Positions 1-52,315 of a DNA stretch of 64,000 bases are shown piece by piece. Both the position numbers and the translations under genes were made by a program. The notes beneath the pieces were generated by a model that made no database searches, had not been told where the DNA came from, and worked only from the letters and a program-made list of their open reading frames with translations. Position 1 is the stretch's first letter, and each line of letters starts with the position of its first letter. Origin of the DNA: Parcubacteria bacterium RAAC4_OD1_1 (GTDB taxonomy: Bacteria; Patescibacteriota; Minisyncoccia; Phycocordibacterales; UBA9973); contig AWSN01000001.1 of assembly GCA_000505065.1 (NCBI GenBank), positions 132,247 through 196,246 on the forward strand, written 5' to 3'.

Positions 1-742
1 TAGCCACGGAATGATTCTTGCAGAAGAAGGGGAGAAAATGTCTAAATCTCGTGGTAATGTCATAAATCCAGATGAAATAATAAAATTATATGGAGCAGAC
101 ACACTTCGTCTTTATGAAATGTTTATTGGTCCTTTTGATCAAGCTGTCTCTTGGAGTACTGAGAGTATTATTGGGCCAAGAAGATTTTTGGAAAAAGTTT
201 GGAAAATAGGAGAAAAAATTGGCTCCTCGAGGTCGAACCTCGGGATCACTAGAGGTTCGACCTCTTCCCGCCAATCATATTCTGCTACATTTCAAACCTT
301 ACTTCATAAAACTATCAAAAAAGTAAGTGAAGATATTGAAAATATGAATTTTAATACAGCTGTTTCTTCTATGATGATACTTGTAAATGAAATGGAAAAA
401 CAAGATGTGGCAAAAAAAGATTTTGAAATGTTCTTACAAATATTATCTCCATTTTCTCCACATATAGCAGAAGAATTGTGGTATTTATTAGGGAATAAAA
501 AATCAATACATACTTCTTCTTGGCCTAAATGGGATAAATCTAAAATCAAAGAAGATAAAATAAAGATAGCGGTACAAGTAAATGGTAAGGTTAGGTCTGA
601 GGTAATCATAGATAAGGATTCTGATGAAAATTTGGTTAAAAATCTTGTCTTAAATCTTGTATCATTAAAACCTTGGATAGAAAATAAACAAATAAAAAAG
701 TTTATATATGTCCCAGGTAGGATTGTGAATATTGTGGTCTAG
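1..742 (+). CDS. leuS: Leucyl-tRNA synthetase, C-terminal part (5' end lies outside window; frame starts at nt 2)
   Basis: Class I KMSKS motif ([10 protein letters not shown]) and anticodon-binding/C-terminal region; TAG stop at 740-742. Confidence 0.85.
221..272. repeat. GC-rich in-frame hairpin insertion in leuS; arms gaggtcgaacctc (229-241) and gaggttcgacctc (252-264) are reverse complements
   Basis: ~65% GC block in a ~30% GC gene; encodes [19 protein letters not shown] just upstream of the conserved HKTIKKV motif; spawns spurious antisense ORF 86..274. Confidence 0.6.
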
Positions 743-7243: not shown

Positions 7244-7314
7244 GCGGGATTAGTTTAGTGGTATGATGCGTCCTTCCCAAGGATGAGACACGGGTTCGAT
7301 TCCCGTATCCCGCA
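7244..7314 (+). tRNA. tRNA-Gly (anticodon CCC)
   Basis: Hand-folded cloverleaf: acceptor gcgggat/atcccgc, anticodon stem cgtcc/ggatg, loop ttCCCaa, T-arm acggg-ttcgatt-cccgt; weak D-stem; no encoded CCA. Confidence 0.8.
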
Positions 7315-7735: not shown

Positions 7736-7996
7736 GCCCTCGTAGTTCAATGGACCCCATCATAATGCTTCTGTAGTTCAATGGATAGAACAGTCCCGTC
7801 CTAAGGGATAGATGTCAGTTCGATTCTGGCCAGAAGCACAAATAAGCATTATGAGGGGCATGTGCCATAGTTCCGTCCTGAGGTGAGAAATGGGTAGGGA
7901 CCCATTTCGCAAGACCTTGAGCGTTTTGTAATCAAAATGCGAAAGGTATACCGCTTTTGTAAGAAGTAGATGCACGTTCGATTCGTACCGAGGGCA
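7736..7996 (+). ncRNA. Composite tRNA-like locus: outer 5' acceptor/D-arm (7736-7754) and T-arm/3' acceptor (7972-7996) enclosing a helix-clamped tRNA-Arg and about 113 nt of hairpin-rich RNA
   Basis: gccctcg (7736-7742) is the perfect complement of cgagggc (7989-7995); T-arm gcacg-ttcgatt-cgtac precedes the latter; see findings. Confidence 0.4.
7767..7838 (+). tRNA. tRNA-Arg (anticodon CCT), canonical 72 nt
   Basis: Acceptor gcttctg/cagaagc, D-arm gttc-aatggata-gaac, anticodon stem gtccc/gggat, loop gtCCTaa, T-arm gtcag-ttcgatt-ctggc, discriminator A. Confidence 0.8.
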
Positions 7997-8032
7997 CTTT
8001 TATTTTTAACCTATTTATGCTATAATATACTT

Positions 8033-8320
8033 ATGGATCAAGAGATTAAGAATCTTTTAGAAGAAAATTTGAGATTATCTAAAGAGAATAATGAATTACT
8101 TATAAAGGTAAGAAATTTTCAACGTTGGTCCCAAATAAGTAAAGCTTTATATTGGCTTGTAATAATAGGTGTAGCTTTGGGTGCATTTTATTTTATAAAG
8201 CCGTATTTTGATAATGTTTTAAATATTTATACAGGTGGAGTTTCTGATATAAATATGATAAAAGATTTAGGTGGAAAGGTTGATATAAATTCTATAAATG
8301 AATTATTAAAACAGTATTAA
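8033..8320 (+). CDS. Small coiled-coil/TM protein; start moved from 7970 to internal ATG 8033 (upstream part overlaps tRNA-like T-arm)
   Basis: TATAAT at 8021-8026 lies 7 nt before ATG (possible leaderless mRNA); one central TM helix. Confidence 0.4.
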   Translation: MDQEIKNLLEENLRLSKENNELLIKVRNFQRWSQISKALYWLVIIGVALGAFYFIKPYFDNVLNIYTGGVSDINMIKDLGGKVDINSINELLKQY

Positions 8321-8332
8321 TAGTTTACATAT

Positions 8333-8405
8333 GCCGAGATAGCTCAGTTGGTAGAGCGCTCCCCTGAAGAGGGATAGGTCCCCAGTTCGAGCCTGGGTCT
8401 CGGCA
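8333..8405 (+). tRNA. tRNA-Phe (anticodon GAA)
   Basis: Acceptor gccgaga/tctcggc, D-arm gctc-agttggta-gagc, anticodon loop ctGAAga, T-arm cccag-ttcgagc-ctggg. Confidence 0.85.
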
Positions 8406-8502
8406 CACAACATATGAACTACTTCATATGTGTCCAGGCGAGAAAGATTTTTCGTTATTTAATGTAATCATTAAATCGAAAAATACCTGGCTATGTAATA
8501 GC

Positions 8503-8522
8503 CGAGCCTGGGTCTCGGCACA
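8503..8522 (+). repeat. Exact 20 nt direct repeat of the tRNA-Phe 3' end (cgagcctgggtctcggcaca; first copy 8388-8407)
   Basis: Identical string 115 nt downstream; second copy preceded by gccgag, forming an acceptor/T-arm-like minihelix. Confidence 0.6.
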
Positions 8523-8527
8523 AAACA

Positions 8528-12003: not shown

Positions 12004-13188
12004 CTATAAAGATAAATTCCCATTGGCTTTGATGGAGCCCAGTTTTGTTGTATATTTTTTATTTTTATATTGGTAGTATCCTGCGATGGCGATCATAAGA
12101 GCATTGTCTCCTGTGTGGCCACGGCCCGGGAAGTGGGCTTTGATCTTTAGGAAGTCCGACTTCCTAACTTTTTTAATTTCATTAGTTATAACTTTTTTAA
12201 GTTGAGGAGAAGCAGAGACTCCACCTCCCACTATTAGGGTTTTGATTTTATATTCCCTTATTGCTTTCATTGTTTTATAAGAAAGCACTTCAAATGCTGC
12301 ATCTTCAAATTCTTTGGCAATTTTTCTTTTTATATCATCTGTAAGTTCTCCGATATCTCGTATCATATAAAGCACAGCAGTTTTAAGTCCTGAAAAAGAA
12401 AAATCATAATCTTTTGAATACATCATCGGACGGGGGAGTTTTATTTCTAGTATTTCACTCGAAATGTTATTCCCGTCAGCACGCAATAAATTTCTGCTGA
12501 AATTTTTGCTCGTGCTCGGCCCGTCGGCCTGCGCAAGGCTTTCTGGAACAACATTCTCTCGTTCCATACTAGCTAATTTTCCAATCTCTGGTCCGCCCGG
12601 GTAAGGGAGCCCCATCATACGAGCGACTTTGTCGAAAGCTTCTCCAACGGCATCATCGCGAGTTTGCCCAATTTTTTTGTATTTCATCCAATTTTTTATA
12701 AAAACAAGTTCCGTGTGTCCACCAGAAACAAGAAGTGTAAGCATTGGGAACAGTTCTTTGGTGTTTTTAATTGTGAAATTTTTTCCTTTTTTAGGAAATA
12801 TAGAAAATATATGTCCCTCCATATGGTTTACGGGTACTATTGGTAATTTATATTTTGAGGATAATTCTTTTGCAAAGACTATTCCAGTCCAAAGTGCAGG
12901 CTCAAGCCCTGGTCCAGTAGTGACAGCGATTGCATTTATTTTTTTATTAATATCTTTTTCTCTAATTTTTGCTTTTCTTAAAACTTTTTCAAATACAAGT
13001 GGCAGATTTTTTATATGCTCTCTTTTAGCAAGAGCAGGATAGACACCACCATATTCTTTATGGATATCTATCTGTGAAGAAACTTCATTTCCAAGTATTT
13101 TAAATTTTGTAGTTTTACCCTGTTGTTTAATCTCCACTATTGCTATGGCAGTCTCATCACAAGATGTTTCTATGGCTAATATTTTCAT
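12004..13188 (-). CDS. tsaD: tRNA N6-adenosine threonylcarbamoyltransferase TsaD (Kae1/Gcp), with ~30 aa GC-rich insertion
   Basis: MKILAIETSCDETAIAIV start, HMEGH metal site, C-terminal GDNALMIAIAG; insertion PESLAQADGPSTSKNFSRNLLRADGNNISSEI encoded by GC-rich DNA 12463-12560. Confidence 0.85.
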   Translation of the reverse strand: MKILAIETSCDETAIAIVEIKQQGKTTKFKILGNEVSSQIDIHKEYGGVYPALAKREHIKNLPLVFEKVLRKAKIREKDINKKINAIAVTTGPGLEPALWTGIVFAKELSSKYKLPIVPVNHMEGHIFSIFPKKGKNFTIKNTKELFPMLTLLVSGGHTELVFIKNWMKYKKIGQTRDDAVGEAFDKVARMMGLPYPGGPEIGKLASMERENVVPESLAQADGPSTSKNFSRNLLRADGNNISSEILEIKLPRPMMYSKDYDFSFSGLKTAVLYMIRDIGELTDDIKRKIAKEFEDAAFEVLSYKTMKAIREYKIKTLIVGGGVSASPQLKKVITNEIKKVRKSDFLKIKAHFPGRGHTGDNALMIAIAGYYQYKNKKYTTKLGSIKANGNLSL

Positions 13189-13830: not shown

Positions 13831-15285
13831 ATGAAAATACTAAATGAAATTTTAAAAGATATCATAATTTTAGAGTCAAAGGGAAACGTTGATACCCCTG
13901 TTTCTTCTGTGTCTTTAGATTCGAGAGATATAGAGCCCCATTCTTTGTTTGTTGCACTTATTGGTAATGTTTTAGACGGGCATTCTTTTATAGATGAAGT
14001 TGTTGAAAAAGGGGCCAAAGTTATAGTTCATGAGAAGGATTTAAGTGAATATAAATCTGGCGTGACTTATATTAAAGTAAAAGATACTCATGAAGCAGTT
14101 GGTATTATTGCAAGTAATTTTTATGGCAATCCGTCCAAGCATTTAAAGCTTGTTGGTGTGACAGGGACAAATGGTAAAACGACAACTGCAACACTTCTTC
14201 ATCAATTATTTAGAAATCTTGGTTATAAAGCTGGGATGATCGGCACAATAGTAAATAAAGTAAATGATGAATCTTATGAAGCTAAACGTACGACCCCAGA
14301 TCCTATTTCTCTAAATAAAATTCTTGCTGAAATGGTGGATAAAGGTTGCGAATATGTATTTATGGAAGTATCTTCTCATTCTATTTCAGAAAAAAGAGTT
14401 TCGGGTCTTTCTTTTGTAGGTGGAATATTTACAAACCTTACCCTTGATCATTTGGATTATCACAAGACTATAGAAAGTTATGCTGAAGCGAAAAAAGGTT
14501 TCTTTGATATGATTCCTAGTTCTGGTTTTGCAATTGCAAATATAGATGATGATATGGGGGAATATATGCTTTCTACTACTAAAGCAAAAAAATATGTATT
14601 TGGGTTAAAAAATGCAGAGGTCAGACCTATGCAAATTTTGCAGAGGTCAGACCTCTGCGGATCAGACCTCTGCGGATATTTTAATGAAAGATTAGAAACA
14701 AAATTAATTGGTGAATTTAATGCTTACAATATTTTAGGAATTTATGCTGTAGCGGTTTTGCTTGGACAAGATAAAGAAAAAATAAAAGAAATTATTAAAG
14801 ACTTAGATGGAGCTCCTGGCAGATTTCAAGCGATAAAAAATAACGATGGAATTATTGGAATTGTAGATTATGCTCATACTCCAGATGCATTAGAGAATGT
14901 TTTAAAAACTGCTAATGGTATAAAAAAAGATGGCAGGCTTATTGCTTTGGTTGGTTGTGGTGGAGATAGAGATAGAAGTAAAAGGCCGATAATGGCTCGT
15001 ATCGGATATGATTTAGCAGATATACTTATCCTTACATCTGATAATCCTCGCACCGAGAAGCCAGAAGATATTCTTATGGAAATGCAGAAAGGTTTACCTC
15101 TTGAAGCATTAGACAAAGTGGAAATAATTGTAGATAGGCATATGGCAATAGAAAAAGCATGCTCCATAGCAAAATCTGGAGATATCATTTTGGTTGCAGG
15201 AAAAGGTCACGAGAATTATCAAGAGGTCAATGGAGTTAAACACCATTTTGATGATTTGGAAGAGTTAGAAAAATATTTAAAATAA
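13831..15285 (+). CDS. murE: UDP-MurNAc-L-Ala-D-Glu:meso-DAP ligase MurE
   Basis: VGVTGTNGKTTT P-loop, DNPRTE MurE signature, Mur ligase C-terminal domain. Confidence 0.85.
   Translation: MKILNEILKDIIILESKGNVDTPVSSVSLDSRDIEPHSLFVALIGNVLDGHSFIDEVVEKGAKVIVHEKDLSEYKSGVTYIKVKDTHEAVGIIASNFYGNPSKHLKLVGVTGTNGKTTTATLLHQLFRNLGYKAGMIGTIVNKVNDESYEAKRTTPDPISLNKILAEMVDKGCEYVFMEVSSHSISEKRVSGLSFVGGIFTNLTLDHLDYHKTIESYAEAKKGFFDMIPSSGFAIANIDDDMGEYMLSTTKAKKYVFGLKNAEVRPMQILQRSDLCGSDLCGYFNERLETKLIGEFNAYNILGIYAVAVLLGQDKEKIKEIIKDLDGAPGRFQAIKNNDGIIGIVDYAHTPDALENVLKTANGIKKDGRLIALVGCGGDRDRSKRPIMARIGYDLADILILTSDNPRTEKPEDILMEMQKGLPLEALDKVEIIVDRHMAIEKACSIAKSGDIILVAGKGHENYQEVNGVKHHFDDLEELEKYLK
14613..14675. repeat. In-frame tandem GC-rich palindromic units (cagaggtcagacctctgcgg x about 2.5) inside murE
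   Basis: Unit is self-complementary (cagaggt-c-agacctctg); encodes AEVRPMQILQRSDLCGSDLCG in a variable loop of MurE. Confidence 0.6.
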
Positions 15286-16680
15286 ATGCAAAATTATAAA
15301 CAATTTTTTAAAGGGAAGAAGATTACAGTCATGGGGCTTGGGATACTTGGGCGTGGGGTAGGGTATACTAAGTTCTTGGCAGAGTGTGGTGCGGATTTAA
15401 TAGTGACAGACCTAAAGACTAAAGAACAACTCGCTATTTCAATTAAAGCTTTAGAAAAATTCTCCAGTCCTAAGCAAGGCTTGGGACCGATAAAATTTAT
15501 ATTAGGGGAACATAGGTTAGAAGATTTCAAGGGTAGGGATATGATTATAAAAGCTGCTGGGGTACCGTTTGATTCTATTTACATAAAAGAAGCTAAGAAA
15601 AATAATATTCCTATCGAGATGGATGTCTCACTGTTTGCTAAACTTGCGAGAGATGTAAAGATAGTAGGTGTGACAGGGACTCGTGGAAAAAGTATGACAA
15701 CAACTTTGATATATGAAATTCTATCAAAGAATATTAAAGATCAAAAAGTTTATATTGGTGGCAATCTTCGAGGAGTTGCCACATTGCCATTACTCAAAAA
15801 AGTAAAAGATGGAGATATTTTAATTTGTGAGCTAGATTCTTGGCAACTTCAAGGGTTTGGAGATAGTAAAATATCTCCAAACATTTCCGTCTTTACTTCT
15901 TTTATGCCTGATCATATGAATTATTATAAAAATAGTATGGAAAAGTATTTTGATGATAAGGCAAATATTTTTAAATATCAAAAAAAAGATGATGTTCTAA
16001 TAATTCGTCCAGGGATGAAAAGTTTTATAAAGAAATCTAATGTTAAAGGAAAATTAATTGTAATTAATCCAAACGATGTTATAGCTTGGAAATTTAATGT
16101 ATTAGGAGCTCACCATAGAGAGAATTTAGCATGTGCGGTAGAAGTAGCGAAGCAATTTGATATACCAATTTCTAAAATCAAAAAAACTGTAGCAGATTTT
16201 AAAGACTTAGAAGGTAGAATGCAATTACTTAGAGTTTATAAGGGGATAAAGATTTATAATGACAACAATGCCACAACCCCCGAAGCAACGATTGCAGGGC
16301 TTGAAGCCTTAAGTGATCAGCCAAAGGCCTTGCCTATGGCTAGCCATAGGCAAGGCCTTTGGCAAAAAAACATTATTCTTATTTGTGGTGGTGCTGATAA
16401 AAATTTACCACTTGAGAATCTTGTAAAAGTTGTAAATAAGAATTGTAAATTTATTTCTTTGATTCCTGGAGGCGGAACTGATAGGTTGTTGTCTAATAAA
16501 AATTTAAAAGTAAAAAGTTATAAAGGAACTGATTTTAAAGATATAATAATTACAGCAATTAATAATGCAAAAAGGGGAGATATCGTGATTCTTTCTCCAT
16601 CATTTGCTTCGTTTGGGATGTTTAATAATGAGTATGAAAGAAATGATTTATTTATGAAAATAGTCAAAAATTTAAAATGA
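15286..16680 (+). CDS. murD: UDP-MurNAc-L-Ala:D-Glu ligase MurD
   Basis: N-terminal GLGxxGRG Rossmann motif, VGVTGTRGKSMTTT P-loop, Mur ligase C-terminal domain. Confidence 0.85.
   Translation: MQNYKQFFKGKKITVMGLGILGRGVGYTKFLAECGADLIVTDLKTKEQLAISIKALEKFSSPKQGLGPIKFILGEHRLEDFKGRDMIIKAAGVPFDSIYIKEAKKNNIPIEMDVSLFAKLARDVKIVGVTGTRGKSMTTTLIYEILSKNIKDQKVYIGGNLRGVATLPLLKKVKDGDILICELDSWQLQGFGDSKISPNISVFTSFMPDHMNYYKNSMEKYFDDKANIFKYQKKDDVLIIRPGMKSFIKKSNVKGKLIVINPNDVIAWKFNVLGAHHRENLACAVEVAKQFDIPISKIKKTVADFKDLEGRMQLLRVYKGIKIYNDNNATTPEATIAGLEALSDQPKALPMASHRQGLWQKNIILICGGADKNLPLENLVKVVNKNCKFISLIPGGGTDRLLSNKNLKVKSYKGTDFKDIIITAINNAKRGDIVILSPSFASFGMFNNEYERNDLFMKIVKNLK
16320..16363. repeat. Perfect 44 nt palindrome (gccaaaggccttgcctatggc|tagccataggcaaggcctttggc) inserted in-frame in murD
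   Basis: Self-complementary over its full length; encodes QPKALPMASHRQGLW, absent from the conserved MurD core alignment. Confidence 0.65.
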
Positions 16681-21516: not shown

Positions 21517-22848
21517 ATGAATTTAGAATTATCAAAAATAAATAACGTTCACTTTATTGGTATTGGGGGTATCGGTATTTCGGCTGTGGCGAGAATGATG
21601 AAAGTAATGGGAAAGAATGTCACAGGGCAAGATATGCAAGATGGGGAGATTGTTAAGGAGTTAAAAAAGTTGAATATTGAAATAAACATCGGCCATCAAT
21701 CATATGAGAATATATCGGATGATACAGAGCTTGTTATTTATACTGTGGCAATTGAGACTTATGATAAAGAACTTTTTGAGAAATTAAAATCGCAAGATAA
21801 GTTTATTATTAAATCATATCCAGAAATGCTCGGAGTTATAAGTGAAGATAAATATACCATTGCTGTTTGTGGGACTCACGGCAAGACGACGACGACAGGA
21901 ATGCTCAAAGAGATATTTGTAGATAATGGGAGTGATCCAACAGTTATAGTGGGGAGTTTACTTAAAGATAAAGATGGATCTCGGACCAATTTTATTCATG
22001 GTACGGGCTCTCATTTTATAGTGGAAGCTTGCGAATATAGAAGGTCATTTTTAAATATCAATCCAGACATTGTAGTTATTACAAACATAGACAATGATCA
22101 TTTGGATTATTATAAAGATATAGAAGATATAAAAAGTGCTTTTCGTGCCTTTGTAGAAAAATTACCTGAAGATGGATATGTAGTTTGTAATATAGATGAT
22201 GAAAATATAAAGGATGTAGTAAATGGAATAAAAGCAAAGGTAATAAACTGGGGTGAGTATTTTGATGGAGAATTAAAACTTAAAATTCCAGGGATACATA
22301 ATAAGAAAAATGCGGCCGCTGCCACGGCTGTCGCCCTCACTTGTGGTATCTCAAAAGAAAAATCCCAGGAATATGTAAAAAATTTCCCTGGTACATGGAA
22401 GCGTTTTGAATTTAAGGGCAAGCTTCCAAATGGAGTGTTGGTCTATGATGACTATGCTCATCATCCTACAGAAATTACTTCAACCTTAGAGGGTTTTAGA
22501 GAAATTTATCCTAAAAGTAAAGGTTGGAATATCACAGTAATATTCCAACCACATCTTTTCTCTCGGACCAAGCTACTTCTTAATGATTTTGCACAGAGCT
22601 TTTATGATGCTGATCAAGTAATAATATTGCCTATATATTATGCTCGTGAAGTTGATGATGGTAGTATCTCATCTTTAATTTTATCAGACGAAATAAACAA
22701 ATTTACCCATAATTCTAAAGTCTTCCTTGATTTTAAATCATCCGAAAATTACTTGGGAGCTGAGCTCCCAAGTATGGGGGAGAAAAATATTATAGTTACA
22801 ATGGGGGCTGGGGAAGCCTCTAAAATAGGAGATATTATACTTAAATAG
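21517..22848 (+). CDS. murC: UDP-N-acetylmuramate:L-alanine ligase MurC
   Basis: HFIGIGGIGISAVA N-terminus, VCGTHGKTTTT P-loop, HNKKNAAAATAVAL region. Confidence 0.85.
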   Translation: MNLELSKINNVHFIGIGGIGISAVARMMKVMGKNVTGQDMQDGEIVKELKKLNIEINIGHQSYENISDDTELVIYTVAIETYDKELFEKLKSQDKFIIKSYPEMLGVISEDKYTIAVCGTHGKTTTTGMLKEIFVDNGSDPTVIVGSLLKDKDGSRTNFIHGTGSHFIVEACEYRRSFLNINPDIVVITNIDNDHLDYYKDIEDIKSAFRAFVEKLPEDGYVVCNIDDENIKDVVNGIKAKVINWGEYFDGELKLKIPGIHNKKNAAAATAVALTCGISKEKSQEYVKNFPGTWKRFEFKGKLPNGVLVYDDYAHHPTEITSTLEGFREIYPKSKGWNITVIFQPHLFSRTKLLLNDFAQSFYDADQVIILPIYYAREVDDGSISSLILSDEINKFTHNSKVFLDFKSSENYLGAELPSMGEKNIIVTMGAGEASKIGDIILK

Positions 22849-39955: not shown

Positions 39956-40000
39956 TCCCCAGATAGTGGTTAAACCACTATCTGGGGGATTGTATTGTTA
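39956..40000 (+). terminator. Rho-independent terminator after rplI (ccccagatagtggtt-a-aaccactatctgggg)
   Basis: 15 bp perfect stem followed by T-rich tract. Confidence 0.6.
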
Positions 40001-40020: not shown

Positions 40021-41754
40021 ATGGATTATCAATCAGAAAACAAGGTGTGTCAGAATTGCAAAAATGACTTTACTGTCGAGCCAGAGGATTTTTTGTTCTA
40101 TAAGAAAATCAAAGTCCCAGCACCGACTTTTTGCCCGGATTGTAGAAGATCCCGAAGATGGTTATGGAGAAATGAAAGAACTTATTATAGAAGAAAATGT
40201 AATGCTCCAGGTCATGAGGAATTTATAATTAGTCTATATTCTCCAGAAGAAAAGAGAAAAATTTATTGTCAGGATTATTGGTGGAGTGATAAATGGGATA
40301 AGATGAATTATGGACAAAAATATGATTTTTCAAAACCCTTTTTTGAGCAGTATAATAATTTATTGCATAATATTCCTATAATTTCTTTATCCAATACACA
40401 ATCAGTAAATAGTGATTATTGTAGCTCTGCGGCTTGGAATAAGGATTGTTATTTATTAAGTGCTGCTGGTTGGAATGAAAATGTATTATATTCTAATCGT
40501 ACTTTTCATAATAAAAATTCTTTTGATTTATATTCAGTAGATAATAGTGAATTTTGTTATGATATTTCTTTTTGTAATAAATGTTATAAAATATTCTTTT
40601 CTTATAATTGTAATGGATGTGTTGAATCATATTTTTTATATAATTGTAGAAATTGTCAAAATTGTTTTGGTTGTGTGAATTTAAGAAATAAACAATATTG
40701 TATTTTAAATGAACAATATACAAAAGAAGAATATGAAAAAAGAATAAAAGAATTAAATTTAAATAATTATTCAAATTTAAAAAATATTAAAGATACTATT
40801 TATAAAAATGTTTATCTTAAAAATATACATAAATTTGCAGAAATAATAAATTGTCAAAATTCGACGGGAGATTATCTACAAAATTCTAATAATTGTAAAG
40901 AATGTTTTGATTTTAGTGGTGATAATAATGAAAACTGTAAATATGTTAATCTGAGTGGTTTTAATGCTAAAGATCTTTATGATACTGGCCCTGGGGCTGG
41001 CTGGGGATCATCTTTACTTTATGAAGGAGTTGATATAAACGATTCGGCAAATATCTTGAGTACTGTAGTTTGTTATAATTCAAATAATTGTTTTTACTGT
41101 TTTAATATTCAAAATTCGAGTAATTTATTTGGTTGTTATGGTTTACATTCCAAACAATACTGCATCCTAAACCACCAATACACCAAAGAACAATACGAAG
41201 AATTAGTCCCTAAAATAATAAAGCATATGAACGATATGCCATATATAGATAGTAAGAGTAGAGTATACAAATACGGAGAATTCTTCCCATCCGAACTCTC
41301 TCCCTTTGCCTATAATGAAACCATAGCTCAAGAATACTATCCTTTAACTAAAGAAGAAGCTTTAGAGCAAGGATATAAATGGAAAGATAAAGAAGAAAGA
41401 AATTACAATATAGATATTAAAAATAACGATATCCCAGATGATATTAATAACACAGATGAATCTATAGTAGGTAAAGTCATAGAATGCTCACATAAAGACT
41501 GTAATCATCAATGCACTGAAGCATTTAAGATAATCCCCGAAGAATACCAATTCTACCGCCGTATAAACCTTCCTCTCCCAAGACTCTGCCCTAACTGTAG
41601 GCACTACGAAAGACTCTCTCAAAGAAACCCTCTTAAACTCTGGCATAGATCCTGTATGAAAGAAGGATGCACCAATACTTTCGAGACATCATATGCACCA
41701 GATAGACCTGAAATAATTTATTGTGAGAAATGCTATCAGCAGGAGGTGTATTAA
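40021..41754 (+). CDS. Cysteine-rich repeat protein with duplicated N- and C-terminal zinc-ribbon modules; function unknown
   Basis: N-module CQNCK..F..EPEDFLFYKKIKVPAPTFCPDCRRSRR and C-module CTEAFKIIPEEYQFYRRINLPLPRLCPNCRHYER are homologous; internal repeats ...KQYCILNxQYTKExYE x2; about 50 Cys. Confidence 0.6.
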   Translation: MDYQSENKVCQNCKNDFTVEPEDFLFYKKIKVPAPTFCPDCRRSRRWLWRNERTYYRRKCNAPGHEEFIISLYSPEEKRKIYCQDYWWSDKWDKMNYGQKYDFSKPFFEQYNNLLHNIPIISLSNTQSVNSDYCSSAAWNKDCYLLSAAGWNENVLYSNRTFHNKNSFDLYSVDNSEFCYDISFCNKCYKIFFSYNCNGCVESYFLYNCRNCQNCFGCVNLRNKQYCILNEQYTKEEYEKRIKELNLNNYSNLKNIKDTIYKNVYLKNIHKFAEIINCQNSTGDYLQNSNNCKECFDFSGDNNENCKYVNLSGFNAKDLYDTGPGAGWGSSLLYEGVDINDSANILSTVVCYNSNNCFYCFNIQNSSNLFGCYGLHSKQYCILNHQYTKEQYEELVPKIIKHMNDMPYIDSKSRVYKYGEFFPSELSPFAYNETIAQEYYPLTKEEALEQGYKWKDKEERNYNIDIKNNDIPDDINNTDESIVGKVIECSHKDCNHQCTEAFKIIPEEYQFYRRINLPLPRLCPNCRHYERLSQRNPLKLWHRSCMKEGCTNTFETSYAPDRPEIIYCEKCYQQEVY

Positions 41755-43509: not shown

Positions 43510-43802
43510 GTCTATTTATATAAAGGGGATTTTAATATCCTTTTATTTGAAAGATATGATAATGTCGCACAATATATCTTTTACGACATTAAATAAGTAA
43601 AATTATGGGGGTTGGCTTTGAGTTTATGTTTATTCTTACCAACCCCAAAACTCTTTAAAAATGGTCACAATTTAATTTTTTAATGACCAACGACCACGAC
43701 CTCTTGGGACCTTCCCCCGAGGATGTTTTTTGTTTTTAATCATAAATAAAGAAATATTAGTTCATATATATTATATATAATAGAAAATTTTTAGCAATAC
43801 CT

Positions 43803-49632: not shown

Positions 49633-50379
49633 CTATTTATTCAAATAATAAAGTCTTTTTGTTTCGGGGAGTCTTTCGATAGCATAACGAAGCATAGTGC
49701 GGGGCATTTTGTTTGAATTTTGATCTAAGTATGAAAGTAACTCCTTCTCATCCACCCTTTTACCCACCTCTCGGAGCATCCACCCACAAGCTTTATGAAT
49801 AAGATCATGTTTATCTTTCATAAGCATATCTGTGATTTTGAAAGTCCAATCTGCTTCTTTTTTATAAATAAAAGCGAAAGTAGAAATAATTGCAATACGT
49901 CTTTCCCATAAATTCTTCGATTTAGCTAACCTAGCAAGGACGGTCCTTGCTAGGTTTTTATTTTTATATAAATAGTCACCCAATATATAATGAGCAGATA
50001 AATCTACTAAATCCCAGTTATTTATATATTTGGTATTTTTCAAATAAAATTTTACAATTTTACTTTTTTCCCCTAGGTCCGACCTAGGGGAACTCGCTCC
50101 TAAGCCTTGCTTAGGAGCGGTTAATTTTTGATATTTTTGAACTAAAATCAAAAGGGCAACAAGACGGGCTTCATGATATTTATTATTTAATAATTCTTGT
50201 ATTTCTTTGAAGTCTATATGAGTATATTTCTTTGCGATACTTCTAGATACTGGAACGGTAATACCGAGGAATACATCTCCTTCCCCATATTCTCCTTTTC
50301 CAGTTTTGAAAAATCTAGTTAAGATTTTAGATTTATCTTTATTTTTTAATTTTAATAATTCATTGATAACCTTTGACAT
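49633..50379 (-). CDS. AlkD/AlkC-like HEAT-repeat DNA alkylation repair protein
   Basis: DNA_alkylation motifs (KTGKGEYGEGDVFLGITVP; NWDLVDLSA; HKACGWMLREVGKR); contains GC-rich in-frame palindromic segment. Confidence 0.6.
   Translation of the reverse strand: MSKVINELLKLKNKDKSKILTRFFKTGKGEYGEGDVFLGITVPVSRSIAKKYTHIDFKEIQELLNNKYHEARLVALLILVQKYQKLTAPKQGLGASSPRSDLGEKSKIVKFYLKNTKYINNWDLVDLSAHYILGDYLYKNKNLARTVLARLAKSKNLWERRIAIISTFAFIYKKEADWTFKITDMLMKDKHDLIHKACGWMLREVGKRVDEKELLSYLDQNSNKMPRTMLRYAIERLPETKRLYYLNK
50070..50119. repeat. Two adjacent GC-rich palindromes (cccctaggtc-c-gacctagggg; cgctcctaagc-ctt-gcttaggagcg) in-frame in the alkD-like gene; insertion status unresolved
   Basis: Self-complementary; encode ...KQGLGASSPRSDLGEK... 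Confidence 0.6.
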
Positions 50380-50584: not shown

Positions 50585-52315
50585 TTATATGAACAATCTC
50601 GCTATTCTTATATCTTCAAAACTCAGACTGTGTCCTTCTTTTTCTAATATTAATTTTATTGGATTTAATTTCCCCACTTCTTCCCCTTTCAATTTTTTAT
50701 TTACTTTTTTTACTAAGTCTATATTTTTCTGCGAAGGTTTAATATGAGAAATAATTGTTTCCGGATATTCTTTCATTATTTCTTCTATGTGGTGAGTGAT
50801 AGTACCTTGGGTAAGATTTCTTTCTTTTGCTATTTGTTTTATATTTTTTCCACTTTCCAATAATTCTTTGGTTACTAAAATGGTTGGGATTTTGGTGTCT
50901 ATAATTTTTCTTTTGCTTTTTCGGTGAGTTTTTGATGATGTGTCTAAAGTCCCACCCATTCTTTTTATAAAATCACTTTCCATTTTTTGTTGATCAGATT
51001 TATTTAGTTTACTAAAAACAATTTCATTTTCAGCACTTTCATTTTTTAATTCTTGATCAAATTTTAAAACTTCCGGATCTACTTTTAAAGCATTTTTATT
51101 TAAGCCTATCAATTTTATACCAGAAAGGGTCCGAACTCGAGAAAGAGCAACATACCCCATCCCATAAGCAAAGGTGCTTCTAAGGTCGATTTCTGCGTTA
51201 TCTAGGGACATTCCTTGGCTTTTGTGTATTGTTATGGCCCAGGCGAGGCGAAGTGGAAGCTGTGTTATGGAGGCTTTTATTTTGCCGTCTTCTTCTATAG
51301 CCCAAAGCATTGGGGTTATGGTCACAGTCTTACCGTTATATAGTTTTATTATTGGGTTATGGGTTTCAGGATCAAAATCTACCACTTTGCCTCGAGAGCC
51401 ATTTACATAACCACTTTCCATATTATTTTTAATACACATAATCTCGGCACCAATTTTTAGGCGAAGTTCTTCGTGGGCTAAACAACTTTTTTTCAAAATA
51501 TCAACAATGATATCATTTCCTTTAGAAGTCATATAATATATTTTTTCTTCAGCATCTATTTTTGAAAGTTCGGTGTGATTTTCATTGTCTACATTTACAT
51601 TGTGAGTATATAATTTTGTTGCTTTTTCATTATTATTTAATTTTGCGTCAATTCGTTTTTCTAAATATTTATAATGTTTATCTTCTGTATTATTGTCACG
51701 AATTGTATTTAATATTTCTGTTAAAATATTGTCTTCTTGTCTATGTTGCTCTGTTAAATAGCAAATTGCAGGATTTAATATTTTCCAAGCATCGCTTATA
51801 TAGACCATTTTTGTCCCACCAGTCGGACTGGTGGGATTACCCACTAGTCCGACTGGTGACTCTTCATATATTCGTTTTTCTACTGGTGGAAGCTGAAAGA
51901 AATCTCCAGAGAGTATTACTTGTAATCCACCAAAAGGTTTCTCTACTCTTTTAAATTTTCGGCAAACTTTTTCTATCATATCAAGTTGGTATCCATGAAG
52001 CATCGATATCTCATCTATTATTAGGACTCTGGCTTTCTCGAATCTGTTCCAGAGATATTTTTTCTCTTCGAGTTGATCAAGATCCCTTTCATCCATTTTG
52101 TTTTTAACACCTATCCCAGACCAGCCGTGTATAGTCATACCGTTCATATGAGTAGCGGCAATACCAGTCGAGGCCGTCACTGCGACAGCGATGTCGTGAT
52201 CTTGTAAATATGAAATGTATTGATTGAGTAAATATGTCTTACCAGAGCCTGCACTACCTGTCAGATAAATATTCACCCCAGTTTTCATAATTTTCAAAGC
52301 TTGTTCTTGGGTCAT
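50585..52315 (-). CDS. RecD/Pif1-like SF1 DNA helicase with C-terminal HTH
   Basis: Walker A GSAGSGKTY, Walker B LIIDEISM, SF1 motifs; C-terminal helix-turn-helix region. Confidence 0.7.
   Translation of the reverse strand: MTQEQALKIMKTGVNIYLTGSAGSGKTYLLNQYISYLQDHDIAVAVTASTGIAATHMNGMTIHGWSGIGVKNKMDERDLDQLEEKKYLWNRFEKARVLIIDEISMLHGYQLDMIEKVCRKFKRVEKPFGGLQVILSGDFFQLPPVEKRIYEESPVGLVGNPTSPTGGTKMVYISDAWKILNPAICYLTEQHRQEDNILTEILNTIRDNNTEDKHYKYLEKRIDAKLNNNEKATKLYTHNVNVDNENHTELSKIDAEEKIYYMTSKGNDIIVDILKKSCLAHEELRLKIGAEIMCIKNNMESGYVNGSRGKVVDFDPETHNPIIKLYNGKTVTITPMLWAIEEDGKIKASITQLPLRLAWAITIHKSQGMSLDNAEIDLRSTFAYGMGYVALSRVRTLSGIKLIGLNKNALKVDPEVLKFDQELKNESAENEIVFSKLNKSDQQKMESDFIKRMGGTLDTSSKTHRKSKRKIIDTKIPTILVTKELLESGKNIKQIAKERNLTQGTITHHIEEIMKEYPETIISHIKPSQKNIDLVKKVNKKLKGEEVGKLNPIKLILEKEGHSLSFEDIRIARLFI
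51815..51857. repeat. GC-rich palindrome pair (cccaccagtc-g-gactggtggg; cccactagtc-c-gactggtg) inserted in-frame in helicase
   Basis: Self-complementary; encode PVGLVGNPTSPTGG. Confidence 0.6.

Follow-up and report, generated by a model that had tools for sequence, protein, structure and literature searches.

Short GC-rich palindromes, placed in frame within housekeeping genes, punctuate a 64-kb window of the genome of Parcubacteria bacterium RAAC4_OD1_1, which belongs to Candidatus Paceibacterota within the candidate phyla radiation (CPR); "the window" denotes the whole stretch of 64,000 nucleotides analysed, whose GC content is 30.6%. The elements are probably a repeat system akin to the repetitive extragenic palindromes (REPs) and their REP-associated tyrosine transposases (RAYTs), with copies that survive mostly as in-frame inserts resembling the Rickettsia palindromic elements (RPEs). 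The parallel with RPEs had been drawn in an initial annotation made from the letters of the window, and it holds as a description of behaviour, that is, of selfish-looking palindromes sitting in frame in housekeeping genes.

A scan of the window for hairpins with a perfect stem of at least 9 bp, arms of at least 50% GC and a loop of at most 12 nt found 9, whereas Markov-1 shuffles averaged 0.13 and never exceeded 1. These lie in leuS (229-264), murE (14640-14658), murD (16320-16363), the gene of a murC-like ligase (22750-22774), an intergenic space (39957-39987), the gene of an AlkD-like protein (49928-49956, 50068-50092 and 50095-50119) and a Pif1-helicase gene (51814-51836). With the imperfect units that accompany them, the elements of the window are the following, the lettered cores being recurrent inner-stem sequences that are defined below.

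218-272, plus strand: leuS element, a 13-nt quasi-palindromic unit present twice, at 229-241 (GAGGTCGAACCTC) and 252-264 (GAGGTTCGACCTC).
12463-12560, minus strand: tsaD element, an imperfect long hairpin of about 100 nt with outer stem GAATGTTGTTCC / GGAATAACATTTC and about 33 extra residues.
14614-14676, plus strand: murE cluster, a 19-nt palindrome twice plus a 15-nt tandem duplication; core B, GGTCnGACC.
15467-15487, plus strand: murD N-terminal element, GTCCTAAGCAAGGCTTGGGAC, core A (AAGCAAGGCTT), with one G·T mismatch, encoding SPKQGLG.
16320-16363, plus strand: murD C-terminal element, a perfect 44-nt palindrome with 22-bp arms and no loop.
22750-22774, plus strand: murC element, TACTTGGGAGCTGAGCTCCCAAGTA, 12-bp stem, encoding YLGAELPSM near the C-terminus.
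39957-39987, no strand assigned: intergenic hairpin, CCCCAGATAGTGGTTAAACCACTATCTGGGG, with a stem of 15 bp, in the space that separates rplI from the next gene.
49928-49956, minus strand: alkD-like site 2, AACCTAGCAAGGACGGTCCTTGCTAGGTT, 14-bp stem, encoding NLARTVLARL.
50068-50119, minus strand: alkD-like site 1, a tandem pair of TTCCCCTAGGTCCGACCTAGGGGAA (50068-50092, core B) and CGCTCCTAAGCCTTGCTTAGGAGCG (50095-50119, core A in the sense of the gene).
51814-51858, minus strand: Pif1-helicase element, a doublet of TCCCACCAGTCGGACTGGTGGGA and CCCACTAGTCCGACTGGTG, core B2 (AGTCnGACT), encoding ESPVGLVGNPTSPTGG.

The murE cluster lies in an open reading frame (ORF) at 13831-15285 with Pfam Mur_ligase N, M and C domains. 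Its first palindrome copy, GCAGAGGTCAGACCTaTGC (14614-14632, 19 nt), has one mismatch, its second, GCAGAGGTCAGACCTCTGC (14640-14658), is a perfect 19-nt palindrome, and the 15-nt tandem duplication of TCAGACCTCTGCGGA occupies 14647-14661 and 14662-14676. The cluster translates as NAEVRPMQILQRSDLCGSDLCGY, the hairpin-encoded segment of MurE including QRSDLCGSDLCG, and the frame of translation differs between the two palindrome copies (AEVRP and QRSDLC). Folded as single-stranded DNA and compared with 200 shuffles, as for all z-scores given here, the murE region has z = -6.4, and none of the 200 shuffles folds as well. The tandem palindromes that the initial annotation described are thus present, at 14613-14676, and their translation had been given correctly, with the boundaries of the units displaced by 1-2 nt. 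Among the other loci it had listed, leuS (218-272), murD, the alkD-like gene and Pif1 were found again, while tsaD, in place of a short crisp palindrome, has the imperfect hairpin of about 100 nt (z = -4.9; 0 of 200 shuffles fold as well). The tsaD hairpin, the only RPE-sized member here, is either an older, degenerate member or one of a different class. Elements beyond that list are those at murD 15467-15487, murC 22750-22774, alkD-like 49928-49956 and intergenic 39957-39987.

The two units of leuS pair as a 13-bp stem within an outer stem TTGGC/GCCAA (z = -6.7), and the element encodes 19 residues in the linker that precedes the anticodon-binding domain, as placed by Pfam domains. In murD, the arms of the C-terminal element hold core A2 (AGGCAAGGCCT / AGGCCTTGCCT) and encode QPKALPMASHRQGLWQ between the NDNNATT and GGxDK motifs, and the tandem pair of the alkD-like gene encodes APKQGLGASSPRSDLGE, the hairpin-encoded segment of AlkD including PKQGLGASSPRSDLGE. 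The second copy of the Pif1 doublet is imperfect and reaches 51858, and the doublet has a single 19-bp hairpin as an alternative fold. The intergenic hairpin has a GGTTAAACC centre, as do hairpins that bracket RAYT-like genes in one related contig (L089), and by this shared centre it presumably belongs to the same system. Directly downstream of it, a 577-aa ORF at 40021-41754 has no Pfam match at E ≤ 0.001.

Related DNA for comparison came from a search of genome contigs that used the MurE protein as query, which returned metagenome-assembled genomes of Candidatus Paceibacterota, Paceibacteria and Nomurabacteria, all CPR, and from a MurD-alignment scan of metagenomes, which gave 80 further loci with 10-kb flanks, groundwater and bioreactor sets being among the samples behind L017-L096; the two sources total about 1.18 Mb and are cited by L numbers. 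At all six loci of the initial annotation, which had proposed insertions in conserved proteins, orthologs have variable in-frame extra sequence, and orthologs that lack the segment exist at murE, murD (two sites), tsaD, the alkD-like gene, leuS and Pif1. Judged by these alignments, the hairpin-encoded peptides are not ancestral, and the six loci are variable insertion sites. In murE the window has 19 extra codons (57 nt) relative to six orthologs that read SLKKEAD/FNER, the stroke marking the insertion point, at which L015 and L003 carry a different 6-aa insert. At the murD N-terminal site the window has 21 nt that are missing altogether (gap of 0) from more than 12 orthologous loci, and L062 and L018 have related copies at this very site. 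The insert of about 33 residues in tsaD is common to the window, L006, L004 and L007, absent in L015 and short in L001 and L005; the leuS segment is missing from minimal orthologs, and many lineages have different inserts of 10-35 aa there. In comparison with solved PIF1 structures (yeast PIF1), the Pif1 helicase has 15 extra residues (12 + 3) exactly at the doublet. The alkD-like copy, whose status the initial annotation had left undecided, falls into two insertion hot spots. Site 1 is absent from minimal 233-aa orthologs and is filled in other lineages by single or double SPRSDLGE, SPRQGLGG or SARQGLAE inserts, and at site 2 the minimal NN-RKILIKLA stands against ARTVLA (encoded by GCAAGGACnGTCCTTGC), SPRTVL and longer variants.

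The C-terminal loop of murD, from YNDNNATT to GGxDK, was compared across 75 loci and presents a graded series. In about 40 loci it spans 99-111 nt, with self-complementarity at chance level and stems mostly of 3-6 bp; in 24 loci it spans 114-126 nt, and 11 of the 24 have a GC-rich hairpin of 9-13 bp; in 14 loci it spans 138-171 nt, and 10 of the 14, including the window, have a perfect palindrome of 37-53 nt. The closest relative of the window by MurE, L015 (86% identity), has almost none of the window's copies. In the public assembly of L015 an N-run (14101-14223) falls exactly at the murD hot spot, beside GC-rich sequence; palindromic inserts probably break short-read CPR assemblies or leave scaffold gaps in them.

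At the murC site, L005 has a core-B hairpin, TTGGAAGTCCGACTTCCAA, of equal length to that of the window and L035 has equal-length non-palindromic sequence, so that sequence at this site turns over without a change of length; L001 has a further 9-aa insert there. A different set of palindromes in MurC, Ala-rich and typified by GCCGCGGCGGCCATGGCCGCCGCGGC and its variants, was excluded as insertions, since they encode a conserved Ala stretch of constant length. The sequences that encode AAAAMAAAA or AAAAIAAAA in that stretch are perfect GC palindromes of 22-26 nt in L001 (17479-17504), L074 (14839-14864), L034 (8554-8575) and L020 (2668-2689), and the Ala-rich stretch of the window is not palindromic. 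These palindromes reflect either the codon symmetry of poly-Ala or palindrome-perfecting mutations on a conserved segment.

The elements are not confined to the window. The related DNA contains 180 perfect GC-rich hairpins with stems of at least 8 bp and with recurrent cores, and a tabulation of genic and intergenic copies, as the initial annotation had suggested, places 137 of the 180 (76%) inside ORFs, counted as genic when the ORF has at least 80 aa. This DNA is 91% coding, and the density of hairpins is 0.127 per kb in ORFs versus 0.417 per kb outside them, that is, 3.3 times higher outside. Single units measure 18-29 nt and doublets 37-53 nt, with a unit GC content of 48-65% in a genome of 30.6% GC. 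Inverted doublets that form a larger hairpin occur in leuS, Pif1 and murE of the window, and the 37-53-nt composites at the murD site have quasi-palindromic arms. When the hairpins are sorted by their inner stems recurrent cores emerge, in which only about 11 nt are shared. The GTCnGAC core noticed in the initial annotation does recur, but as one of several families rather than as the core of a single family:

Core A: AAGCAAGGCTT / AGGCAAGGCCT, read as S-P-K/R-Q-G-L-G.
Core B: RGTCNGACY, read as R-S-D-L or S-P-T-S.
Core C: GTGTTGGACAC / ACGTTGGACGT, read as G-V-G-H or D-V-G-R.
Core D: CCTGCCTGCGCAGGCAGG, read as L-P-A-Q-A-G.
Further types: GGTTAAACC-centred hairpins and others.

The window carries cores A and B, with 2-4 copies per core. 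Counted over 1.25 Mb of pooled loci, the cores exceed shuffles by a factor of 5 to more than 50: AGGCAAGGCCT was observed 18 times against 0.2 in shuffles, and GTGTTGGACAC, CCTGCGCAGG and TGTCAAAG-N5-CTTTGACA were observed 11, 5 and 13 times, each against 0. Core D, CCTGCCTGCGCAGGCAGG, is present as an exact 18-nt insertion at two sites of L010 where more than 40 orthologous loci have a gap of 0; L010 holds three identical 18-mers within 17 kb, and in L005 one 17-mer is present in both murD and murC. Copies can be more conserved than their flanks, with 23/23 and 51/51 identical nucleotides against about 90% in the flanks. Clean comparisons of filled with empty sites revealed no consistent target-site duplication, and no Rfam family matches any hairpin. 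Motif-only counts of orientation and phase were dropped because ordinary codons contaminate them (for example GGCAAGACC, encoding the G-K-T of P-loops), and orientation bias was judged from hairpin-context copies only; among the genic ones, core A occurs in about 10 sense (CAAGG) and 1-2 antisense copies, a bias that is suggestive, not established.

Two further sets of palindromes were noted in the related DNA. Hairpins with CCCCTCTCC...GGAGAGGGG stems lie at 14117-14145, 14203-14232 and 14875-14902 of L098, at 4211-4233 of L055 and at 10898 of L079; the three copies of L098 cluster around a small DUF559 / MTES_1575 gene, and in-frame copies of the family, read NPSPERRGG, occur in a 436-aa ORF of L055, L056 and L063. 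Long perfect palindromes with A/T-run ends lie outside ORFs (L043 11717-11758, L030 1242 and L053 15024; for example AAAAAAATCCCCCTCTGCTCGCGAGCAGAGGGGGATTTTTTT, 42 nt). These A/T-ended palindromes resemble bidirectional intrinsic terminators and are probably a class separate from the in-frame elements.

The reading frame is kept with great regularity. Among length differences between orthologous sites, 195 of 219 (89%) are multiples of three (p = 4e-66), which implies that the elements are translated, and the remaining 24 fall within flank-projection error. The initial annotation had described the lengths of the palindromes themselves as mostly multiples of three, but these measure 19, 23, 25, 29 and 44 nt; the rule applies to the inserted lengths as measured against orthologs. 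Two of the three frames of the common cores are closed by stops, which lie in the CTAG, TTAG and CTAA of their stems, and the fixed phase and the recurring peptides follow from these stops. In an AlphaFold model of the AlkD-like protein, with a mean predicted local distance difference test (pLDDT) score of 91.8, the peptide of the tandem pair (aa 87-104) lies mostly in a coil, 88-97, between two helices, and this coil overlaps the only low-confidence block of the model (residues 91-100, mean pLDDT 63); the site-2 palindrome lies in a confident helix, 141-152 (block-mean pLDDT 91-93).

Candidate mobilizing enzymes are encoded in the related genomes. A motif search followed by tblastn identified Y1/HUH transposase-like ORFs in L040, L043, L055/L056, L087 and L089. 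The L040 and L043 proteins score 43 and 46.5 bits on Pfam Y1_Tnp (PF01797; cutoff 23), and their only NCBIfam match is the REP-associated tyrosine transposase. At E ≤ 1e-10 there are 4,390 homologs of the L040 protein, of which the best 120 are 68-100% identical to it and mostly 208 aa long; to several of the best 120 their sources give the name 'REP element-mobilizing transposase RayT' or an assignment to Candidatus Paceibacterota. In four contexts the L040-type gene lies between a methyltransferase gene and gyrA (adjacent to gyrA or separated from it by one small gene) and within a few kb of murC-murD-murE, and this conserved synteny indicates vertical, single-copy inheritance. The gene is bracketed by TGTCAAAG-N5-CTTTGACA on both sides in L040 and L098 and on one side in L043 and L097, with a partial match upstream in L099. 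The L055 gene has AGAAGTAAGC-CTT/ATT-GCTTCCTTCT on both sides and a perfect inverted copy, CAGAAGGAAGCAAGGCTTCCTTCTG, inside the ORF, all of core A; a second RAYT-like gene in L098 is flanked by TATAGGTGTCCAACACCTAAAT and TATAGGTGTTGGACACCTAAAT (core C, TAGGTGT-CCA/TGG-ACACCTA); and ACTTGGCGG...CCGCCAAGT hairpins occur around and inside the genes of L087 and L089. Cores A and C, which flank RAYT-like genes, are the same cores that are found in frame in other genes. The arrangement recalls the REPtron, in which a RAYT gene stands between its cognate repeats. The gene types of L055, L087, L089 and L098b, which occur at varying places, could be like insertion sequences (IS). About 5-8 kb upstream of the RAYT-like gene in L097-L099 there are four to five tandem small T4SS_pilin (PF18895) / TrbC genes, and these arrays adjoin a solute-binding protein gene in a synteny kept across Paceibacteria relatives.

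In a REP/RAYT-like system, a RAYT-family HUH/Y1 tyrosine transposase would recognize the folded hairpin on single-stranded DNA, cut it and re-insert it elsewhere without a target-site duplication. With genomes that are about 91% coding, most landing sites would lie inside genes, and the copies that survive purifying selection would be those that keep the frame, are free of stops and sit in tolerant protein loops. The outcome would be in-frame inserts in leuS, tsaD, murE, murD, murC, the alkD-like gene and Pif1, encoding peptides rich in Ser, Pro, Gly, Arg, Gln and Leu. Permissive loops would become hot spots occupied by different members, as singles or doublets, according to lineage, and doublets would form by adjacent insertion or by duplication. 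RAYT-like enzymes would be the agents that move these hairpins, the genome of the window presumably has such an enzyme, and the murE core GGTCnGACC is presumably served by one.

Several observations weigh against this reading. On the NCBIfam RAYT model the score is 61.8 bits, short of the 80 set as the equivalog cutoff. There is no RAYT-like ORF within the 64-kb window, and the DNA examined has no RAYT partner for core B (GGTCnGACC / AGTCnGACT, the murE core) or for core D. A hairpin-flanked gene is also the anatomy of IS200/IS605, and the orientation of the flanking hairpins is mixed among loci. The GTAG/CGTC tag of REPs was found, within 6 nt of the end or in the outermost 4 stem nt, in only 3 of 86 distinct hairpins, and the stems here are perfect through the centre, unlike the imperfect stems of REPs. 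There is, finally, little or no length change at the murC site of the window, at alkD-like site 2 (about 3 residues over minimal orthologs) and at L001:17527, and palindromes that appear without a length change are left unexplained by simple insertion, as is the presence of different cores in one loop in different lineages. Such equal-length sites and core exchange may arise by replacement at pre-existing hairpins or by template-switch correction, and both may contribute.

What is conserved in these elements is the stem. In an alignment of eight 48-nt murD-loop sequences, whose register was set by flanking codons and not by structure, 9 of 12 stem pairs have changed on both sides, with 87.5% of cells paired, a result matched by 0 of 500 shuffles, and register-slid controls collapse. 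Among the 44-nt palindromes of the window, L001 and L026, 8-11 of the 22 positions differ per arm (9-11 when the window is compared with the other two), and every difference is mirrored in the other arm. Since each compensation changes a pair of codons together, it is not the peptide that is preserved, and SSARQGLAE versus VSPRHGLGE is one case of a compensated peptide change in which the stem is kept. Imperfect hairpins were enumerated directly for mismatch counts, and in a set of 94 different genic hairpins, each having 10 or more matched pairs, isolated mismatches comprise 19 sense-strand G·U and 27 A·C (p = 0.30); without a sense-strand G·U excess there is no sign of selection on an mRNA fold. 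The symmetry of the palindromes points instead to DNA, in the form of a single-strand hairpin, a cruciform or a copying process.

A copying process could by itself have made the palindromes in place, without a transposase, through slippage and intra-strand template switching at replication (quasi-palindrome correction, snap-back synthesis) that would generate, perfect, lengthen and duplicate them in tolerant loops, an explanation that is unlikely. GC-rich seeds would be favoured by their stable folding, and the shared cores would be the few GC-rich palindromes that are benign and free of stops. Perfection through to the centre with loops of 0-1 nt is what this process would leave, as are arm changes that are always mirrored, the 15-nt tandem duplication in murE, and large palindromes that resemble inverted duplications of small ones; the replacement of equal-length non-palindromic sequence (L001:17527 and window 22750), the one palindrome in a confident helix and the single stop-free frame of the common cores also speak for it. 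Template switching is an established source of perfect hairpins, a subject treated in a preprint (10.1101/2023.04.19.537475). Origin in place does not, however, account for identical 18-mers that stand, exactly bounded, at unrelated sites whose orthologous counterparts are empty, or for cores that recur across genes and genomes of different environments far above shuffles. Inserts of 55-65% GC in a genome of about 30% GC were not copied from local flanks, and RAYT-like genes are bracketed by the same cores. Template switching is plausible as maintenance of inserted elements; as their sole origin it does not fit.

Vertically inherited RAYT-like enzymes might also repeatedly exchange, duplicate and re-perfect hairpins at fixed hot spots in essential genes, a site-directed process that could be called 'hairpin swapping' and that we regard as distinctly unlikely. 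Were it to operate, palindromes would stay perfect while their sequence turned over, and surface loops would be continually rewritten. It would amount to a new transposase-driven diversification of protein loops in host-attached bacteria, and would mean that very short palindromes evolve in concert in a way that is new.

The hairpins could instead be maintained by host selection, for mRNA stability, RNase III sites or translation pausing, or for binding of gyrase or nucleoid proteins, or as uptake or methylation signals. The strong covariation that keeps the stems would agree with this, as would the copies that are more conserved than their flanks, and host roles have been reported for the REPs of E. 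coli (summarized in PMC3733652). The 19 versus 27 mismatch count, with no excess of sense-strand G·U, runs counter to selection on RNA, presence and absence differ between close relatives (L015), and the positions are scattered over unrelated proteins. A reading of the genic copies as terminators was ruled out, as no T-run follows the stem, and the 3.3-fold higher density outside genes is what would be expected if genic copies were merely tolerated; maintenance by host selection is decidedly improbable. It is very improbable that the peptides themselves, SPKQGLG, RSDLGE, LPAQAG and GVGH, are selected (for example as an interaction or modification motif) with palindromy as a by-product. These peptides do recur in MurD, the AlkD-like protein and other proteins across lineages, and most single genic copies of core A have the sense CAAGG orientation, but two-codon compensations change the peptide and keep the stem, the murE element is read in two frames, copies exist outside genes, and the stops in the other two frames explain the fixed frame. 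That the palindromes are artefacts of assembly or amplification (chimeric inverted repeats from metagenome assembly or multiple displacement amplification) is almost certainly wrong, for although palindromes do disturb assemblies, as the N-run at the murD site of L015 illustrates, palindromes at the same sites are found in independent NCBI, JGI and ENA assemblies, the copies are in frame within intact conserved genes, and the arms covary in step with lineage relatedness.

Among known systems, the closest comparison is with REPs, palindromes of 20-40 bp that often form inverted dimers and are associated with RAYTs (Di Nocera et al. 2013, PMC3733652). As in REPs and their hairpin-forming doublets (REPINs), the elements described here are short GC-rich stem-loops, with opposite-orientation dimers that fold into larger structures, apparently dispersed and in several families per genome; as in REP-RAYT systems, a Y1/HUH gene in the related genomes is bracketed by cognate hairpins and is apparently single-copy and syntenic, and clean insertions lack a consistent target-site duplication. 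REPs that lie within genes and encode 20-30 residues are described from a few species, namely O. terrae and, as RPE-4 and RPE-6, R. conorii (PMC3733652), and the translated repeats inside genes described here are like those of Opitutus terrae and Rickettsia conorii. The differences are also clear. The GTAG/CGTC tag of REPs is absent here, and it is the tip of the hairpin that is conserved while the outer stem varies, with no conserved end tag; ORFs contain 76% of the copies, in contrast to the mainly extragenic REPs; and the host is an AT-rich, approximately 91% coding CPR genome whose RAYT-like proteins score below the NCBIfam equivalog cutoff.

The resemblance to RPEs lies in palindromic inserts that are in frame in housekeeping genes, absent from orthologs and different between close relatives. 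RPEs are palindromic repeats placed in frame in the housekeeping genes of a reduced, AT-rich genome, where they are tolerated in surface loops; they differ between close relatives and are presumably selfish DNA from which new segments of peptide arise. The classic element, RPE-1, measures about 100-150 bp, with a recognizable consensus for each family, and the series RPE-1 to RPE-8 was reportedly set out by Ogata et al. in 2000 and 2002. In comparison with RPE-1, most units here are smaller, at 18-29 nt with doublets of 37-53 nt, and share only the core of about 11 nt, and unlike for RPEs a candidate mobilizing enzyme can be identified.

Perfect inverted repeats within functional genes are also known from the mitochondria of Nematomorpha (Mikhailov et al. 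2019, PMC6649704). There, as here, both arms are translated, and protein function and a stringent structure are kept together (PMC6649704). The nematomorph repeats are long (up to 284 bp), mitochondrial, encode conserved parts of proteins and are not dispersed families tied to a transposase. The palindromes described here differ in being short, mostly in variable loops, and grouped in core families that are apparently multi-copy. IS200/IS605-family insertion sequences and their palindrome-associated derivatives likewise pair a Y1 HUH transposase (PF01797) with flanking hairpins, which are subterminal, and transpose as single strands and without target duplication. Unlike in IS200/IS605, NCBIfam gives the RAYT model only and no IS200 model, the main gene is syntenic in several genomes and apparently not multi-copy and mobile, and the dispersed units are bare 18-29-nt hairpins without a gene. 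The mobile GC clusters, or double-hairpin elements, of fungal mitochondria are GC-rich, palindromic, sometimes in frame in protein genes, and resident in very AT-rich genomes; they are organellar and unrelated in sequence, and no dedicated transposase is known for them. The likeness is one of analogy only. Miniature inverted-repeat transposable elements (which span 70-300 bp and have terminal inverted repeats, a non-palindromic centre and a target-site duplication) differ in that the units here are far shorter, are palindromic through the centre and have no consistent duplication.

CPR/Patescibacteria genomes have a reputation for being streamlined and for carrying little mobile DNA, and here they hold many tiny palindromic repeats, whose density of about 0.14-0.15 per kb extrapolates to about 100 per genome of 0.6-1 Mb. 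The repeats have colonized the coding sequence of genes for the cell wall, translation and repair. A literature search found no paper on in-frame palindromes or on RAYT/REPIN systems in CPR, Patescibacteria or Parcubacteria; the phenomenon may have been published all the same. A REP/RAYT-like origin would extend such systems to a major uncultivated lineage and would provide the RPE phenomenon with a candidate enzyme. The murD-loop series of empty sites, single hairpins and perfect doublets across dozens of lineages offers a model for insertion, duplication and the upkeep of palindromy. The palindromes inflate apparent protein divergence, and lineage-specific peptides of this kind could mislead CPR phylogeny and annotation.

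Other features of the window concern its tRNA genes and its organization. The last 25 nt of tRNA-Phe (8333-8406), with a few following bases (8388-8412), are repeated 115 nt downstream (8503-8527) at 96% identity. When an integrase-borne element integrates at a tRNA gene or is excised from one, it usually leaves a second copy of the tRNA 3' end behind; here the two copies are separated by only about 90 nt. A T-arm-like fragment, AAGAAGTAGATGCACGTTCGATTC, at 7961-7984, about 120 nt after tRNA-Arg, overlaps the start of an ORF at 7970-8320 and resembles the T-arm regions of tRNA-Arg and tRNA-Gly (7803-7826 and 7279-7302); it may be a tRNA remnant. Between tRNA-Arg and this fragment lies a GC-rich hairpin at 7887-7908. 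Further along the window the gene strand switches from plus (up to 43509) to minus (from 43803), and the cumulative GC skew peaks in the 42-44 kb bin. The convergent genes and the skew maximum suggest a replication terminus in the AT-rich spacer of about 290 nt at approximately 43510-43800.

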